Origin: a virus
Lineage: Duplodnaviria > Heunggongvirae > Uroviricota > Caudoviricetes
Length of the DNA stretch: 8,808 bases
Reading direction: 5' to 3' (one strand)
IMG/VR virus record: IMGVR_UViG_2706794492_000011
The translations under genes were made by a program, and so were the position numbers. The notes below the pieces were generated by a model that saw only the letters and a program-made list of their open reading frames with translations, was not told the DNA's origin and ran no database searches. Position 1 is the stretch's first letter; every line of letters begins with the position of its first letter. Below are positions 1 through 6,554 of the stretch, piece after piece.

Positions 1-551
1 CTGCGGCGGTTCTGGTAGCGGCATCCAGTGTGACGGTTTCCACGACGCACCAGGAATTATCCACCCATCATTAGCGTCAGGATGCCCCGGGATGTAAGTA
101 GCCCATTTCATTCGCCAGTCACCTTTCCTGTCAAACTCCACGGCAACAAGAACGGCTGTTTTGGTATTCGGCATTCGCTCACTACAGCTTATCCAACCAT
201 CCGGAGTTACCGGAGAATTGCCAGCCTTGCGCATAGCAATCTCCATGATTTCAACCATATCTCCNNNNNNNNNNNNNNNNNNNNNNNNNNNNNNNNNNNN
301 NNNNNNNNNNNNNNNNNNNNNNNNNNNNNNNNNNNNNNNNNNNNNNNNNNNNNNNNNNNNNNNNNNNNNNNNNNNNNNNNNNNNNNNNNNNNNNNNNNNN
401 NNNNNNNNNNNNNTTCTGCTTCCAGCGATGCCAGTGCAATTTTGAATAACTCGCCCTCTACCCGTGCCATCCCTGAATTGGGGTAGCATTTCGCAATCGC
501 TATTTTTAATTTGGCTTCTTCGATTAATTTCTCTTTGGTTAATTCAGTCAC
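1..551 (-). CDS. DUF551-type phage protein; N-terminal part 414-551 and C-terminal domain 1-264 separated by the N gap; 3' end lies beyond window start
   Basis: Minus-strand reading of 264->1 is open to the window edge and translates to ...EIAMRKAGNSPVTPDGWISCSERMPNTKTAVLVAVEFDRKGDWRMKWATYIPGHPDANDGWIIPGASWKPSHWMPLPEPPQ, which fits the DUF551 signature as I recall it (GWIS...MP...WMPLPEPP). The N-terminal piece MTELTKEKLIEEAKLKIAIAKCYPNSGMARVEGELFKIALASLEAE starts at GTG 551. The frame relationship across the N run cannot be determined, so one gene versus two is unresolved. Confidence 0.5.
265..413. other. assembly gap or masked sequence (149 consecutive N)
   Basis: Uninterrupted run of N from 265 to 413, seen directly. 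Confidence 0.95.
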
Positions 552-2471: not shown

Positions 2472-3212
2472 TCAGTTCCTGTGCTGGCTGACGTTCGGAC
2501 GCCAGCTCTCCCAGTTAAACGTCACCCAGCGACCTCCGTTCATGGACATGCGGTCCATCACCCGCTCGCCGAGAAGTGTATTCATCGCTGCATGATTAAG
2601 ATTTGTCAGCATCCCCACACTGAGTAACGATGCCGTTCTGCGGTCAACAATCTGATTAAGCGTGACCTGCTCATTACGCGTATCCCGCTGCATGCCAATT
2701 TCATCCAGGACCAGCAAATCCACCCCGCAAAGCTCCTGTAAAAATTTTTCACCTGATTTGCCGTTGTCGTAACTGTCGTGCAACACACTCATGACATCAG
2801 ACACAGTGATGATAATTACGCTGCGCCCCTTCTCCATCAGCCGATTGCCTATCGCCGCCGCCAGGTGGTTTTTTCCTGTGCCAGGCCGGCCACTGAACAC
2901 AAAATTCGTACAGCCGCCTTCCAGCTCTGCCGCAATGGATTTCGCCTGACTCAGGGCATGGCGCTGACCAGCGTTCTGCACCCGGTAGTTACAGAACGTA
3001 CACTTCCGGTGAAGCGGCTGGATACCGGAGCGGTTAATGATTTTTTCAACCCGCGTCTGATGATTCAGACGATTAACCTCCTCGCTTCGCTTACGCCCTT
3101 CAGCAAGCTGCCATTCCCGCCACTCCGCCACCGTACGGTACGGAGGGATTGCATCCTGCGGCACAAATCTGCTGATTCTTGCCAGAACACCACCTGACGT
3201 AATGTTTTTCAT
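2472..3212 (-). CDS. prophage DnaC-like replicative helicase loader (IstB-like AAA+ ATPase)
   Basis: 246-aa product with Walker A GRPGTGKNHLAAAIG and Walker B LLVLDEIG; collinear similarity along its length to E. coli DnaC as recalled (…NRSGIQPLH…CTFCNYRV…IVDRR…GMLTNLN…LGERVMDRM…). Lies 6 nt downstream of the initiator gene. Confidence 0.9.
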   Translation of the reverse strand: MKNITSGGVLARISRFVPQDAIPPYRTVAEWREWQLAEGRKRSEEVNRLNHQTRVEKIINRSGIQPLHRKCTFCNYRVQNAGQRHALSQAKSIAAELEGGCTNFVFSGRPGTGKNHLAAAIGNRLMEKGRSVIIITVSDVMSVLHDSYDNGKSGEKFLQELCGVDLLVLDEIGMQRDTRNEQVTLNQIVDRRTASLLSVGMLTNLNHAAMNTLLGERVMDRMSMNGGRWVTFNWESWRPNVSQHRN

Positions 3213-3218
3213 GATGCG

Positions 3219-4187
3219 CTACCCCCTGAACCCCGGCGGAATTTCGGTATCCGGTTCAGAAATATGATTCACGCAACGCTGCGCGGGCGAACGCCCCAGG
3301 CGAATAACCAGCTCATCCCATTTTTCCCGGAGTTTTGCCGGACTCATGATGTTTTTTACCCAGAACGAATCCCGTTGAACACGCCCAAACATTTCACAAA
3401 TCTGTCGGTGACTACGTCCATCCAGCATACGCATCATGCGCACATCATTCGCCCAGGTCGTCCAGTTAGGCTCTCTGGGGCGTGATACCTCCCCATCATC
3501 ACTGGCGGCCTGTTCATACAACGCAACAACCCGTCCCCAGATCCACTGTGCACACGTCAAATCCTCCCGGGTTCCCCACTGTCGCTTCGGTACATTCCAG
3601 GTATGCGCATCCGGGTGTTTCTCCAGAAATCGCTCAACTGGTGATGATTGTTTTTCGTCCGGCAGTGAAACGTCCGGACAAGAAGATCTTTTATCTGACG
3701 GATCAGGTTTTAATACTGACGGATCGGGGTCAATCATCGCCCCCCTAATCCGCAGTTTTTTATCAACAGTTGATCCATCAACATTTGACGGGCCAACCGT
3801 TGAGGGGGCAATATTTGACGGGTCATTTTTTGCCTGGCTAATTTTTCTTTTTGGTTTATATGCCTCACGCGCCGCCGCTGCAGCTGCTTCAAGTTTTTCC
3901 ACATTAAGCCGATAGATATTGCTTACGTTACGCCCACCGACCTTACGCTCTTCCTTCGTCAGCCAGCCCTCTTTCGCCAGTTCTGCAATAGCCGATTTCA
4001 CTGTGGATTCACTTCTTGCACCGATCTGACGCCGGATAGTTTCAATGGCAGGCCATGACACGCCCTCGTCATTGCTGTAGTCTGCAAGACGGGCCATAAC
4101 CGCCACCCTGGATAAGATCATGCCGGTGAAGGCGCACCCTTCCCAGACAAGACCATGAAGCTTGCTGCTCATAAAACCCCCGAACAC
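3219..4187 (-). CDS. phage replication initiator (lambda O-like / DnaT-like C-terminus): N-terminal winged helix, DPS-repeat linker, C-terminal domain
   Basis: 322-aa ORF; start is GTG at 4187 or ATG at 4172 (MSSKLHGLVW...). N-terminal HTH-like segment LSRVAVMARLADYSNDEGVSWPAIETIRRQIGARSESTVKSAIAELAKEGWL; linker with repeated DPS/PS motifs; position immediately upstream of the DnaC-like gene. Confidence 0.75.
   Translation of the reverse strand: MFGGFMSSKLHGLVWEGCAFTGMILSRVAVMARLADYSNDEGVSWPAIETIRRQIGARSESTVKSAIAELAKEGWLTKEERKVGGRNVSNIYRLNVEKLEAAAAAAREAYKPKRKISQAKNDPSNIAPSTVGPSNVDGSTVDKKLRIRGAMIDPDPSVLKPDPSDKRSSCPDVSLPDEKQSSPVERFLEKHPDAHTWNVPKRQWGTREDLTCAQWIWGRVVALYEQAASDDGEVSRPREPNWTTWANDVRMMRMLDGRSHRQICEMFGRVQRDSFWVKNIMSPAKLREKWDELVIRLGRSPAQRCVNHISEPDTEIPPGFRG
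3695..3860. repeat. putative replication origin: four 10-bp iteron-like direct repeats plus AT-rich tract, inside the initiator gene
   Basis: CTGACGGATC at 3695-3704 and 3716-3725 (21-bp spacing); TTGACGGGCC at 3785-3794 and TTGACGGGTC at 3815-3824 (30-bp spacing); palindrome TCAACAGTTGA about 3763-3773; AT-rich stretch about 3826-3860 (TTTTTTGCCTGGCTAATTTTTCTTTTTGGTTTATAT). Matches the lambda-type arrangement of ori within the O gene linker. Confidence 0.45.
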
Positions 4188-4194
4188 CGTGCTT

Positions 4195-4620
4195 TTAGTG
4201 CATCACCACAGCATTCCCTGCCGGGCCGCCGCGATTCATCTGGTCATACAAAACAACCGCTGACGCAACAAAATCATCGACATCCTTCACCAGCCGATCC
4301 CTCCGTTCGACGATCTCACGGTAATATTCAGAACTGTGGCTGCGCATACGGGCCACCAGCAAAGGCGGCATCGCCTTTTCGATCGCCGGTAACAGAGCCT
4401 GCATTTTTTCAACAGCATCAGGGGTGTCTTTCTCTACCCAGCGGAAAATTTTCTGGGTATTGCGAGCCAGGGCTTCCGGATGGCTGTCGTCATACAGTTC
4501 TGGGAACGTCATACCCAACTCAAAATAAGCCTGGGTTATTCCAGCTGCTGGAACTTTTTCGCCATCAGGACGCGCCCAGGCATTCATCGCCATGCGGATG
4601 TGTTCATGCTTGATTTTCAT
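4195..4620 (-). CDS. ydaT: YdaT-family protein (Rac-prophage YdaT-like; reported as toxin or CII-like regulator)
   Basis: 141-aa ORF beginning MKIKHEHI..., ATG at 4620 with GGAG about 7 nt upstream; overlaps the upstream YdaS-like gene by 17 nt; position (Cro-like, YdaT, replication genes) as in Rac. Confidence 0.7.
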   Translation of the reverse strand: MKIKHEHIRMAMNAWARPDGEKVPAAGITQAYFELGMTFPELYDDSHPEALARNTQKIFRWVEKDTPDAVEKMQALLPAIEKAMPPLLVARMRSHSSEYYREIVERRDRLVKDVDDFVASAVVLYDQMNRGGPAGNAVVMH

Positions 4621-4879
4621 GAATCAACTCCGGTGTATTTTGTGTGTTAGCCTTATCTCCAGCAGGCAACCCGTCGGTTGGATTCGGATATAAATCTGGT
4701 CGCAATTCATGAGGAGTCACCCCAGTTGCAATATAAATTTGACGAACCCGCTCCCCTGTCGGCACTCGACCATTGTATTCATTTGCCCATTTGTGTATTT
4801 GAGACGGCCAAGCCCCTATTGCACGCCCTAGCGGACGAATACCACCAGCAATCTTTATTGCCTTGTCCAATGCTGTCAT
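4604..4879 (-). CDS. ydaS: Cro-like HTH regulator, YdaS family
   Basis: 91-aa ORF MTALDKAIKIAGGIRPLGRAIGAWPSQIHKWANEY...; GGAGG 4 nt upstream of ATG at 4879; first gene of the leftward operon, divergent from the repressor gene. Confidence 0.7.
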   Translation of the reverse strand: MTALDKAIKIAGGIRPLGRAIGAWPSQIHKWANEYNGRVPTGERVRQIYIATGVTPHELRPDLYPNPTDGLPAGDKANTQNTPELIHENQA

Positions 4880-4906
4880 ACAACCTCCAATTCAATCAGC
4901 CACAAC

Positions 4907-4935
4907 ATTGTTCACTTAAAGAGAACATAAGTCAA
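4907..4935 (-). promoter_or_regulatory. putative early (PR-like) promoter with operator in the spacer: -35 TTGACT (4935..4930), -10 AACAAT (4912..4907), operator TGTTCACTTAAAGAGAACA (4909-4927)
   Basis: Read on the minus strand: TTGACT-17 nt-AACAAT, about 25 nt upstream of the ydaS RBS. The 19-bp imperfect palindrome (half-sites TGTTC...GAACA) occupies the spacer. Near-identical to the module at 5437-5465. Confidence 0.5.
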
Positions 4936-4946
4936 CACTACGAGGA

Positions 4947-4984
4947 ATTGTTAGTGTTCACTGAACGGTTATAATTGCTAAATG
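4947..4984 (+). promoter_or_regulatory. putative repressor-maintenance (PRM-like) promoter: -10 TATAAT at 4970-4975 about 7 nt before the repressor ATG; adjacent palindrome GTTCACTGAAC (4955-4965)
   Basis: Perfect TATAAT hexamer ending 6 nt before ATG 4982 with no Shine-Dalgarno in between, implying a leaderless mRNA. Weak -35 TTGTTA at 4948-4953. Shares the TGTTCAC half-site with the operator. Confidence 0.4.
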
Positions 4985-5371
4985 GACATGAGAAAAAAGC
5001 AATACGACACCCCGCTGGCAGAAAGGTTAGATACGATCTCGCAACAGCATCATTTAAGCGGTTCAGATTTAGCGCGCATCGCTGGTGTAGGACGCTCATC
5101 AGTCAACGCCTGGAAAAAAAGAGGGACAATCAGTAAAGATTCCGCAGCCAAAATTGCAGAAGCGACAAATGTTTCCCTTTCCTGGCTACTGACAGGAAAA
5201 GAAGATACAAACAGAGAGGCGCTTGATGATGATGAGAAAGCCCTGCTTGATGTTTACAGAAACCTGCCACCTGTAGAGCGTAGAAATATGCTGGCAGCTT
5301 TTCAAATGCGCCTTCAAAAACTGACCGAATTTTACTCAGAATACGTTGACCCAATAACGCGACAAAAATAA
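4982..5371 (+). CDS. dicA: XRE-family phage repressor (DicA/RacR-like): N-terminal HTH plus C-terminal helical domain
   Basis: 129-aa ORF with HTH segment LSGSDLARIAGVGRSSVNAWKK; divergent from the Cro-like gene; followed by terminator and the dicF-dicB arm as in Qin. The symbol is by analogy and recalled similarity, not a database hit. Confidence 0.75.
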   Translation: MDMRKKQYDTPLAERLDTISQQHHLSGSDLARIAGVGRSSVNAWKKRGTISKDSAAKIAEATNVSLSWLLTGKEDTNREALDDDEKALLDVYRNLPPVERRNMLAAFQMRLQKLTEFYSEYVDPITRQK

Positions 5372-5392
5372 TTCTTTATTTTACAAAACAAT

Positions 5393-5415
5393 ACCGCCGG
5401 AAGGCGGTTTTTTTT
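5393..5415 (+). terminator. Rho-independent terminator downstream of the repressor gene
   Basis: ACCGCC-GGAA-GGCGGT perfect 6-bp GC-rich stem with tetraloop, followed by a run of 8 T (5408-5415). Confidence 0.8.
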
Positions 5416-5436
5416 GCCTCTTGCGCATTCACAATG

Positions 5437-5465
5437 TTGACATATGTTCATCTTAAGAGAACAAT
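5437..5465 (+). promoter_or_regulatory. putative promoter of the ydfA-dicF-dicB arm (PL-like) with operator in the spacer: -35 TTGACA (5437-5442), operator TGTTCATCTTAAGAGAACA (5445-5463), -10 AACAAT (5460-5465)
   Basis: Consensus TTGACA, 17-nt spacer, AACAAT. Spacer is 13/17 identical to the ydaS promoter spacer; operator is 16/19 identical to 4909-4927. Confidence 0.55.
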
Positions 5466-5540
5466 ATATCCCATCAAAGCACAACGGTGCGACAGGTCTT
5501 AGTTCCGCCCCCCCCGGCGTTAAGGGCAAATGAGGTCAAC

Positions 5541-5693
5541 ATGGATACGCTCAATCTTGGCAACAACGAATCTCTGGTATGTGGCGTGTTTCCCAATCAG
5601 GACGGCACGTTTACCGCGATGACGTATACCAAAAGTAAAACGTTTAAAACCGAAGCTGCCGCGCATCGCTGGTTAGCCAGAAACGCTAACTGA
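5541..5693 (+). CDS. DUF1391-family small protein (YdfA/YdaF-like), 50 aa
   Basis: MDTLNLGNNESLVCGVFPNQDGTFTAMTYTKSKTFKTEAAAHRWLARNAN; GAGG 6 nt upstream of ATG 5541. The track ORF 5487-5693 extends upstream over the promoter and is not favoured. Matches recalled YdfA/YdaF proteins. Confidence 0.6.
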   Translation: MDTLNLGNNESLVCGVFPNQDGTFTAMTYTKSKTFKTEAAAHRWLARNAN

Positions 5694-5953
5694 TTAGCGC
5701 CAGTAAAAACAGGTTTCCACAGGTTAATTTACCCTGAAAAGTCAGGGCATAACACGAAAGCGCACGGCGAGATCCCTTTGCATATAAGTCTTGCCGTTAA
5801 ATTTCTTCGACCGTGCGCTTCTGGTTGTGGCAATCCGCGAAATGGCGCGGCGGTAAGTATGGCGGGGTTATTCCTTCCCCTTGAGGACACCGGGTTGTCA
5901 GGCTGACCATACGCTTAAGTGACAACCCCGCTGCAACGCCCTCTGTTATCAAT

Positions 5954-6011
5954 TTTCTGGTGACGTTTGGCGGTATCAGTTTTACTCCGTGACTGCTCTG
6001 CCGCCCTTTTT
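5954..6011 (+). ncRNA. dicF: DicF small RNA (ftsZ-targeting sRNA of Qin-type prophages)
   Basis: TTTCTGGTGACGTTTGGCGGTATCAGTTTTACTCCGTGACTGCTCTGCCGCCCTTTTT matches E. coli DicF as I recall it; ends in a GC-rich segment plus T5; about 170 nt upstream of a dicB homologue. Exact ends are approximate. Confidence 0.6.
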
Positions 6012-6180
6012 AAAGTGAATTTTGTGATGTGGTGAATGCGGCTGAGCGCACGCGGAACAGTTAAAACCAAAAACAGTGTTATGGGTGGATTCTCTGTATC
6101 CGGCGTTAATTGTTAACTGGTTAACGTCACCTGGAGGCACCAGGCACCGCATCACAAAATTCATTGTTGAGGACGCGATA

Positions 6181-6369
6181 ATGGAAACGTCACTACCAAA
6201 CGTTAATACGTCTGAAGGGTGTTTTAATATTGGTATTCTGCTCAGTAACCGGGAGTTTACTGAAGACGCCATCAGGATGAGAAAATATGAGCCTTATCTT
6301 CTCAATGATAATTCCATACTCTCCAGAATTGCCCTTCTTGAACTTGGCATTTTCGGAGGGCAGCAGTGA
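6181..6369 (+). CDS. dicB: DicB-like cell-division inhibitor (MinC-activating), 62 aa
   Basis: METSLPNVNTSEGCFNIGILLSNREFTEDAIRMRKYEPYLLNDNSILSRIALLELGIFGGQQ; N-terminal half closely matches recalled K-12 DicB (METLLPNVNTSEGCFEIG...FTEDAI...), C-terminal half diverges. GAGG 8 nt upstream of ATG 6181. Confidence 0.75.
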   Translation: METSLPNVNTSEGCFNIGILLSNREFTEDAIRMRKYEPYLLNDNSILSRIALLELGIFGGQQ

Positions 6370-6554
6370 GTTCAGCGTTTGCACTGATGATGACGGTTTT
6401 TCTTATAACAGGTGAGCCACAGAATGTGATTACCGGAATTTATGCCAGTAAAGAATCCTGCCATCAGGCAAGAGACGAGCAAAAAATTTCCGGTGAATGT
6501 CTCCCGTTAAACAAAGTATCGCTGTACCTGAATAACGAAATACCGGCTGGATAA
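6366..6554 (+). CDS. small protein with hydrophobic N-terminus, translationally coupled to dicB (positional equivalent of ydfD)
   Basis: GTG start at 6366 overlaps the dicB stop (GTGA); GGAGGG 5 nt upstream. Product (V/M)SSAFALMMTVFLITGEPQNVITGIYASKESCHQARDEQKISGECLPLNKVSLYLNNEIPAG. Family assignment uncertain. Confidence 0.5.
   Translation: MSSAFALMMTVFLITGEPQNVITGIYASKESCHQARDEQKISGECLPLNKVSLYLNNEIPAG

Follow-up and report, generated by a model that had tools for sequence, protein, structure and literature searches.

A 17-nt ydaS/ydaT overlap in an Escherichia coli O157:H7 prophage coincides with a YdaT operator at a mosaic junction

In an 8,808-nt stretch of tailed-phage DNA (IMG/VR record IMGVR_UViG_2706794492_000011, here called the window), two genes of the YdaS and YdaT families overlap by 17 nt. 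We asked what this pair does and why the two genes overlap. An earlier note on the same DNA had read the pair as a Rac-type, possibly toxic module wired to a Qin-type immunity and division-inhibitor arm. Our analysis indicates that the region is in all likelihood a lambdoid prophage's switch for immunity and early regulation, in which a repressor of the DicA/PaaR2 class is combined with a YdaS-like Cro analogue and a YdaT CII analogue, and in which the overlap arises at a mosaic junction.

The gene pair and the immunity region

The pair and its downstream genes are as follows.

2472-4187, minus strand: replication genes downstream of ydaT (Pfam, PHROGs, BLAST)
2472-3212, minus strand: DnaC/IstB-like loader, 75% identical to Rac YdaV
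3219-4187 (RefSeq start 4172), minus strand: O-like initiator (phrog_391, E 4.5e-106)
4195-4620, minus strand: ydaT, CII-like transcriptional activator, 141 aa (Pfam, PHROGs, PDB)
4604-4620, minus strand: ydaS/ydaT overlap, 17 nt (sequence)
4628-4631, minus strand: GGAG, Shine-Dalgarno of ydaT (sequence)
4604-4879, minus strand: ydaS-like gene, predicted Cro analogue, 91 aa, first gene of the PR-type operon (ORF, Pfam, PHROGs, RefSeq)
4884-4888: GGAGG, Shine-Dalgarno of the ydaS-like gene

Both reading frames proposed earlier are present in the ORF list, and RefSeq/PGAP gives the same two CDS limits for an identical O157:H7 locus (L001, where 12096-12521 corresponds to 4195-4620 of the window and 12505-12780 to 4604-4879). 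The stop codon of ydaS (TGA) lies at 4606-4604 and the ATG of ydaT at 4620-4618, which confirms the described overlap, and the GGAG that had been noticed inside the coding end of ydaS is found at 4631-4628, 7 nt 5' of the ATG. Over positions 4100-5500 the window is identical (100%) to an E. coli O157:H7 prophage, present for instance in strain FRIK944 and integrated beside an ompW remnant. To the left of a masked stretch (265-413), the window compared with L001 at a fixed offset shows 210 mismatches, starting from position 1.

Profile searches placed both proteins above the Pfam gathering thresholds, so the family assignments of the earlier note hold, and the O-like initiator and the IstB/DnaC-like loader downstream of the pair agree with its placement at the head of a replication operon. 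YdaT matches YdaT_toxin (PF06254; 37.8 bits, cut-off 21) and phrog_163, ‘CII-like transcriptional activator’ (E 2.3e-47). Over its full length it is ~95% identical to YdaT of prophage CP-933P (PDB 8BT1, E 1e-88) and it also aligns with 3C4R; it is predicted to consist of an N-terminal POU-like HTH domain and a long C-terminal tetramerising helix. The YdaS-like protein matches YdaS_toxin (PF15943; 39 bits, cut-off 30) and phrog_35 (E 1.6e-25), shows a weak sequence match to the structure of a Xylella prophage Cro (3BD1, E 1.3e-3), and is encoded at the head of the operon that runs divergently from the repressor gene. In CP-933P, YdaS and the repressor PaaR2 were shown to be Cro and CI analogues (PMC9986795, PMC8630535); that YdaS, which is not similar in sequence to the YdaS-like protein of the window, binds the repressor's operators in reversed order of preference. 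By analogy, the YdaS-like protein would act as the Cro analogue of the switch, operator binding included.

The divergent intergenic region of 102 bp contains two promoters and their operators, and a third promoter with an operator lies beyond the repressor gene.

4907-4935, minus strand: PR-type promoter, −35 TTGACT, −10 AACAAT (promoter scan)
4909-4927: operator TGTTCACTTAAAGAGAACA, a 19-bp palindrome overlapped by the PR-type promoter
4948-4975, plus strand: PRM-type promoter, −35 TTGTTA, −10 TATAAT (promoter scan)
4949-4967: second, weaker operator-like site at the PRM-type promoter
4982-5371 (RefSeq start 4988), plus strand: short CI-type repressor of the DicA/PaaR2 class, 129 aa (Pfam, BLAST)
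5393-5415, no strand assigned: intrinsic terminator after the repressor gene, a bidirectional stem with T runs
5435-5465, plus strand: PL-type promoter before ydfA-dicF-dicB, −35 TTGACA, −10 AACAAT
5445-5463: operator at the PL-type promoter
5541-6554, plus strand: left-arm genes (Pfam, Rfam, RefSeq, BLAST)
5541-5693, plus strand: ydfA-like DUF1391 gene
5955-6006, plus strand: DicF sRNA (Rfam, 76.7 bits)
6181-6369, plus strand: dicB
6366-6554, plus strand: ydfD-like gene

The repressor has HTH domains only (Phage_CI_repr, 47.8 bits; HTH_3, 34.2 bits), without an S24 peptidase domain in Pfam. It is 26% identical to DicA over 110 aa that include the C-terminal region (E 5e-7), and a C-terminal LLxxxxxLPxxE module is common to it, DicA, PaaR2, and other short repressors beside ydaT. 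In the PDB search it gave HTH-level matches only, the best being the 186 CI repressor (E 4e-3). The earlier description of a DicA-type repressor and operator is therefore half right: the short architecture is DicA-like, but the operator is TGTTCA-N7-AGAACA (19 bp) rather than the TGTTAG-N6-CTAACA of DicA (18 bp in Qin), and the immunity specificity appears from these sequences to differ from that of DicA.

The predicted PRM start (~4982) is the A of the repressor ATG, which suggests that the repressor mRNA from this promoter is probably leaderless, as are those of PaaR2 of CP-933P and lambda cI (PMC8630535). No Shine-Dalgarno sequence is visible 5' of this ATG. The short repressor, probably made from the leaderless PRM-type mRNA, would bind the TGTTCA-N7-AGAACA operators at PR (4909-4927) and at the PL-type promoter (5445-5463), and would thereby silence ydaS-ydaT-O-dnaC on the right and ydfA-dicF-dicB-exo-xis-int on the left. 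This operator logic is carried over from PaaR2 by analogy, the repressor having no BLAST-level similarity to PaaR2. Exact operator matches occur in the window only at the PR and PL-type promoters, and both belong to a 31-nt promoter-operator cassette whose PR copy (4907-4937) and inverted copy (5435-5465) are 84% complementary. The earlier note placed DicF and DicB correctly on the other arm; Rfam finds the former, and Pfam the latter together with DUF1391/YdfA. Because one cassette serves both PR and the ydfA-dicF-dicB promoter, co-derepression of the two arms is plausible, and the proposed co-induction of DicF and DicB with ydaT is a reasonable reading.

The YdaT box and a candidate leftward promoter

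Two further features lie at and beside the ydaT start.

4610-4627, no strand assigned: YdaT box (operator OM), TTGATTTTCATGAATCAA, containing the ydaT ATG
4645-4653, plus strand: candidate PRE-type extended −10, TGt TAGCCT (conserved hexamer)

The box is an exact TTGATT-N6-AATCAA and the only match without mismatches in the window. On the coding strand it reads TTGATTC-ATG-AAAATCAA, so that the ydaT start codon and most of the 17-nt overlap fall inside it and the GGAG adjoins it. This coincidence of overlap and YdaT operator had been overlooked in the earlier reading. CP-933P YdaT is a tetrameric POU-like HTH protein that binds TTGATT-N6-AATCAA at the ydaS/ydaT border and activates a leftward PRE-type promoter, making it a functional CII analogue (PMC9986795, PMC8630535). 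The site was footprinted for CP-933P YdaT (PMC9986795), and a YdaT box was footprinted for Rac YdaT as well (PMC11879457). From the 95%-identical orthologue we predict that the YdaT tetramer of the window binds the palindrome at 4610-4627 around its own start codon.

To compare the junctions, we surveyed 80 IMG/VR loci whose YdaT is at least 96% identical, together with loci of the Rac and Qin types; the survey comprised ~250 related loci in total, 15 of them from genome contigs, and its diversity came mainly from IMG/VR. On the repressor side of the box, a TAnnnT hexamer starts 21-22 nt beyond the box in all 12 junction types, and in 13 of 13 when one more is added, against a background of 0.023 per offset elsewhere in the same sequences. 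The types include CP-933P, Rac, and Qin/DicC, and the sequences between box and hexamer are unrelated. With related types counted once (~6 independent lineages), the chance of this pattern is ~1e-8. The weak hexamers TAGCCT, TAACGT, and TATCCT are preceded by TGn in all types but one (the L066 type, CGT-TAGCCT), whereas the good hexamers TACAAT, TATGAT, and TACGAT have no TGn in front. In the window the hexamer is TAGCCT (4648-4653) and the TG lies at 4645-4646; in CP-933P the candidate −10 of PRE933P, as we read it from the sequence, is TACAAT. This conservation suggests a YdaT-activated PRE promoter beside the box.

The inferred PRE start of the window would lie near 4660, and transcription would run antisense through ydaS towards the repressor gene. 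Relative to this start the box is centred near −41.5/−42.5, a geometry that points to a class II activator with no usable −35. Such a geometry fits two properties of PRE933P, namely that its basal activity was undetectable while a reporter was turned on by CP-933P YdaT (PMC8630535), and that the reporter fragment, defined by the F-PRE primer, starts where window position 4592 would be, just 18 nt ahead of the box. A simple scan of the plus strand near the box found no consensus sigma-70 promoter, as expected because the promoter would be activator-dependent. Bound YdaT would turn on leftward transcription from a PRE-type promoter with its −10 (TAGCCT) inside the 3' end of ydaS, giving a transcript antisense to ydaS that continues into the repressor gene. 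Because no Shine-Dalgarno sequence precedes the repressor ATG, this long transcript might translate the repressor poorly and act mainly as an antisense to ydaS.

The position of the box also raises the possibility that it serves mainly in negative autoregulation or as a roadblock to transcription from PR into ydaT and the replication genes, PRE activation being secondary; the box lies over the start codon and right beside the Shine-Dalgarno sequence, and RNA polymerase arriving from PR could be held up by a bound tetramer. We consider this unlikely. In Rac, ydaT expression from PydaST changed little with or without binding at the YdaT box while leftward expression rose steeply (PMC11879457), CP-933P YdaT turned on the PRE reporter, and on the leftward side the constant spacing of the conserved TAnnnT from the box speaks for a promoter. 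Activation of a leftward promoter by YdaT remains our preferred reading of the box.

The overlap as a mosaic junction

In the ~250 loci, at least 12 unrelated cro-like genes stand upstream of near-identical ydaT genes, and YdaT at least 96% identical is preceded by at least nine unrelated cro/repressor pairs, each cro with its own repressor. One of these pairs is that of CP-933P (cro MTLKEF..., 100 aa; PaaR2 MQKKE..., 123 aa), whose type has an intergenic region of 97 bp, matching the published length. DNA homology between junction types ends at the right-hand edge of the box. Matches in phage databases end at window position 4631, and the reverse primer for CP-933P ydaS agrees with this limit. 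Four upstream types have a perfect box. In three of them (those of the window, of CP-933P, and L014) the plus strand has CTCC at the position of the ydaT GGAG, whereas in the fourth (L004) the GGAG has moved 2 nt further upstream.

The junctions take three forms, a 17-nt overlap (protein end ...IHENQA), a 4-nt ATGA overlap (...DS), or a short gap. Among the loci with YdaT at least 96% identical, the overlap is 17 nt in 44 of 81 and 4 nt in 37 of 81, while the Rac and Qin subfamilies (YdaT ~31-38% identical) have −3-nt and −22-nt gaps. All three frames are stopped within 17 nt of the ydaT ATG, by the TGA in TTGATT, ATGA, and GCATGA, and a single-base indel turns one cro type from the 17-nt into the 4-nt form. 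A junction is a gap, a 4-nt overlap, or a 17-nt overlap because the frame of the incoming cro picks which TGA is met. Unrelated cro genes, junctions set by frame, and the end of homology at the box together argue that the overlap is a side effect of modules having been joined at the box; it appears not to be a designed or tuned feature of this pair. The ydaT module, box included, would then be a mosaic unit joined to varied cro/repressor modules at the box edge. Of 5426 complete E. coli genomes, 3293 carry DNA of the ydaT module, in as many as seven copies each, whereas only 82 carry the immunity region of the window.

Could the 17-nt overlap nevertheless be a selected device, either for obligatory translational coupling or for an mRNA hairpin presenting the ydaT AUG, that sets the YdaS:YdaT ratio? 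Re-initiation or coupling is physically possible, with the ydaS stop 14 nt past the ydaT AUG and the GGAG present, and the palindrome of the box could make a 6-bp stem with the AUG in the loop. However, in RNA folding the junction (4585-4665) scores no better than shuffled sequence (z = −0.25), nearly identical YdaT proteins occur with both overlap lengths, gaps occur in the Rac and Qin subfamilies, and one base suffices to switch a cro type between forms, all of which makes a selected overlap improbable.

Much weaker still is the reading of YdaS-YdaT as a type II toxin-antitoxin pair with the usual operon coupling of such systems, which we regard as highly implausible. It draws on the Pfam names YdaS_toxin and YdaT_toxin, on the RefSeq label ‘toxin YdaT family protein’, and on toxicity of the Rac pair upon derepression or over-expression, as reported in PMC5700377 and PMC5700373, but the pair stands between a CI-type repressor and O/P-type replication genes at the head of a long replication operon rather than in a self-contained toxin-antitoxin operon, YdaT is a sequence-specific DNA-binding tetramer in its 95%-identical orthologue and its operator is present in the window, PHROGs classes the family as CII-like activators, and the same ydaT beside at least nine unrelated cro-like partners misfits a cognate toxin-antitoxin interface. 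No toxicity was detected for CP-933P YdaT, and the authors concluded that YdaS and YdaT act as Cro and CII analogues and are not a toxin-antitoxin system (PMC8630535). We reject the toxin-antitoxin reading on gene context, operator presence, promiscuous pairing, and these published tests; the toxin framing of the earlier note is outdated.

The joining of modules at the box has a corollary for the candidate promoter. We lean slightly towards the view that the PRE promoter is split across the mosaic junction, the ydaT module supplying the activator and the box and each unrelated cro module supplying a −10 exactly 21-22 nt beyond it. If so, Rac would also have a proximal promoter, TATGAT, next to its YdaT box. 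Box-dependent activation in Rac was assigned to PracR4, ~190 bp away, and not to a proximal promoter (PMC11879457); the PracR4 construct contains both PracR4 and the proximal TATGAT. Under the split-promoter arrangement, the proximal promoter and not PracR4 would be the real YdaT-dependent one.

Relation to known prophage switches

The closest characterised relative is CP-933P (Sp12) of E. coli O157:H7 with its PaaR2/YdaS/YdaT system (PMC8630535, PMC9986795; 8BT1). Besides the ~95% identical YdaT, the two share an identical OM box at the ydaT start and identical flanking DNA up to 4631, as well as the layout of a short repressor, a divergent promoter region of ~100 bp, a cro-like gene, ydaT, and an O-like gene. 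Both have a second PR-like promoter-operator beyond the repressor, and a leaderless repressor start is likely in the window too. The cro-like protein has 91 aa in the window and 100 aa in CP-933P, and the repressor 129 aa and 123 aa, respectively; BLAST gave no hit at E < 0.01 between the repressor and PaaR2 or between the YdaS-like protein and CP-933P YdaS. We also considered homology to PaaR2 and CP-933P YdaS and rejected it, only the C-terminal motif being common to the repressor and PaaR2. The operators of CP-933P are of the GTTTAGTAA type instead of TGTTCA-N7-AGAACA, its junction has the 4-nt instead of the 17-nt overlap, and its repressor gene is followed by the paaA2-parE2 toxin-antitoxin genes, where the window has a terminator and then directly ydfA-dicF-dicB.

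Qin of K-12 (dicA/dicC-ydfX, ydfABC-dicF-dicB) shares the left arm, with DUF1391 (YdfA) 84%, DicB 58%, and YdfD 45% identical and DicF present, the repressor architecture of DicA, and a second operator-promoter ~170 bp downstream of the repressor. The 17-nt overlap recurs between its dicC and ydfX, the latter a truncated YdaT-family gene whose product is 38% identical to YdaT of the window. However, DicC is a P22_Cro-family protein without similarity to the YdaS-like protein, the box is degenerate (GTGATT-N6-GTTCAA), the right arm is deleted, DicA is only 26% identical to the repressor, and the operator half-site and spacing differ.

Rac of K-12 (racR/ydaS-ydaT-ydaU-ydaV-ydaW; PMC11879457) has the same gene families in the same order, a YdaT box around the ydaT ATG that differs by one base (ATGATT-N6-AATCAA), a YdaV 75% identical to the loader, a YdaW 58% identical to the next gene, a DUF1391 protein (YdaF) 79% identical to that of the window, and a division inhibitor on its left arm too. 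Its YdaS and YdaT, by contrast, are only 30% and 31% identical to the proteins of the window, ydaS and ydaT are separated by 22 nt without overlap, RacR is unrelated to the repressor outside the HTH, the division inhibitor is KilR and not DicB, and in place of the O/DnaD-like initiator it has the DUF1376 protein YdaU, related only over the last 19 aa (68%).

The picture of a Rac-type module wired to a Qin-type arm is therefore a false contrast, given the ~30% identity to the Rac regulators, the gap in Rac, and an initiator that is not YdaU. We rejected a Rac-Qin fusion as a special event, as Qin has the same cro-ydaT junction and Rac has a DUF1391 gene and a division inhibitor. Because both prophage types natively possess a cro-ydaT unit and a division-inhibitor arm, the picture marks nothing unusual, and the mix of Rac-like and Qin-like genes looks like ordinary lambdoid mosaicism.

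With lambda cI/cro/cII the window shares logic and gene order, an activator gene after cro, a site at the cro/cII border, and, as predicted for the window, a leftward PRE antisense to cro and a leaderless PRM repressor mRNA. The sequences are not similar, and while CII binds direct TTGC repeats straddling −35, YdaT is predicted to be a POU-like HTH tetramer on an inverted repeat with an inferred centre near −41.5. The repressor also lacks the RecA-cleavable S24 domain.

Overall, ydaS and ydaT most likely encode analogues of Cro and CII in a prophage switch of a largely known kind with an unstudied immunity specificity. The finding itself is of little importance; two ordinary prophage regulators turn out to be mislabelled ‘toxin’ in the databases, and a striking overlap is presented as a by-product of module shuffling at a known operator. 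In O157:H7, a rare immunity specificity, comprising repressor, Cro analogue, and operator, would control the DicF/DicB division-inhibitor arm. Novelty, if any, lies in the split-promoter idea alone. The conserved −10 hexamer provides a simple, testable rule for locating the YdaT-dependent promoter of a module that over half of the complete E. coli genomes carry.

A hexamer beyond the YdaT box

Past the YdaT box, at a distance of 21-22 nt, a TAnnnT hexamer was found in all of the cro-module types compared (loci L004-L258), against a background frequency for TAnnnT of 0.023 per offset. The sites in the window and in Rac (L002) are as follows.

Window 4645-4653, + strand: candidate -10 element (TAnnnT) of a predicted PRE-type promoter, antisense to ydaS, that YdaT would activate, at the fixed spacing of 21-22 nt from the YdaT box
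L002 about 4652-4657, minus strand: Rac counterpart of the hexamer

This constant spacing implies a candidate YdaT-dependent PRE promoter proximal to the box, which would include Rac; the YdaT-dependent activity of Rac is credited in the literature to a promoter about 190 bp away (PMC11879457).

The repressor gene and its borders

Window 4970-4975, + strand: PRM-like -10 element (TATAAT), which puts the predicted start at 4982, on the first base (A) of the repressor's ATG
Window 5393-5415: intrinsic terminator stem ACCGCCGGAAGGCGGT, scoring on both strands

The repressor may start at ATG 4982 or, according to RefSeq, at ATG 4988, and a Shine-Dalgarno sequence is absent ahead of both codons (window 4970-4990). 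The mRNA from the predicted PRM start is probably leaderless, as are those of PaaR2, the CP-933P repressor, and lambda cI. The terminator stem, with A-rich sequence to one side and a run of T to the other, stands between the repressor gene and the PL-type promoter.

Probable joints within genes

Window 4604-4700: 3' half of ydaS, encoding the common tail

The YdaS-like C-terminal tail (VTPHE...YPNPTDGLP...ANTQ...) is 50-55% identical to the tails of two cro-like proteins (loci L044, L066, L086) that show no relationship to it in the N-terminal HTH half. A common tail on unrelated HTH halves points to an additional recombination point within the cro gene.

Several YdaT-bearing prophage contigs of E. 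coli type (L084, L091, L093-L095) come from MAGs labelled Collinsella, Nanosynbacter, Veillonella and Bacillota, placements that are almost certainly binning contamination from Enterobacteriaceae prophage DNA. Among small hypothetical genes, window 265-413 is masked (149 consecutive N), and leftward of it the fixed-offset, base-for-base alignment to L001, the matching E. coli O157:H7 prophage locus, is lost.

The last 19 residues of the O-like initiator (codons at window 3219-3275) are 68% identical to those of Rac YdaU while the remainder is unrelated, and the adjoining DnaC-like loader (window 2472-3212) is 75% identical to Rac YdaV. The initiator's C-terminal tail probably travels together with the loader that it contacts.
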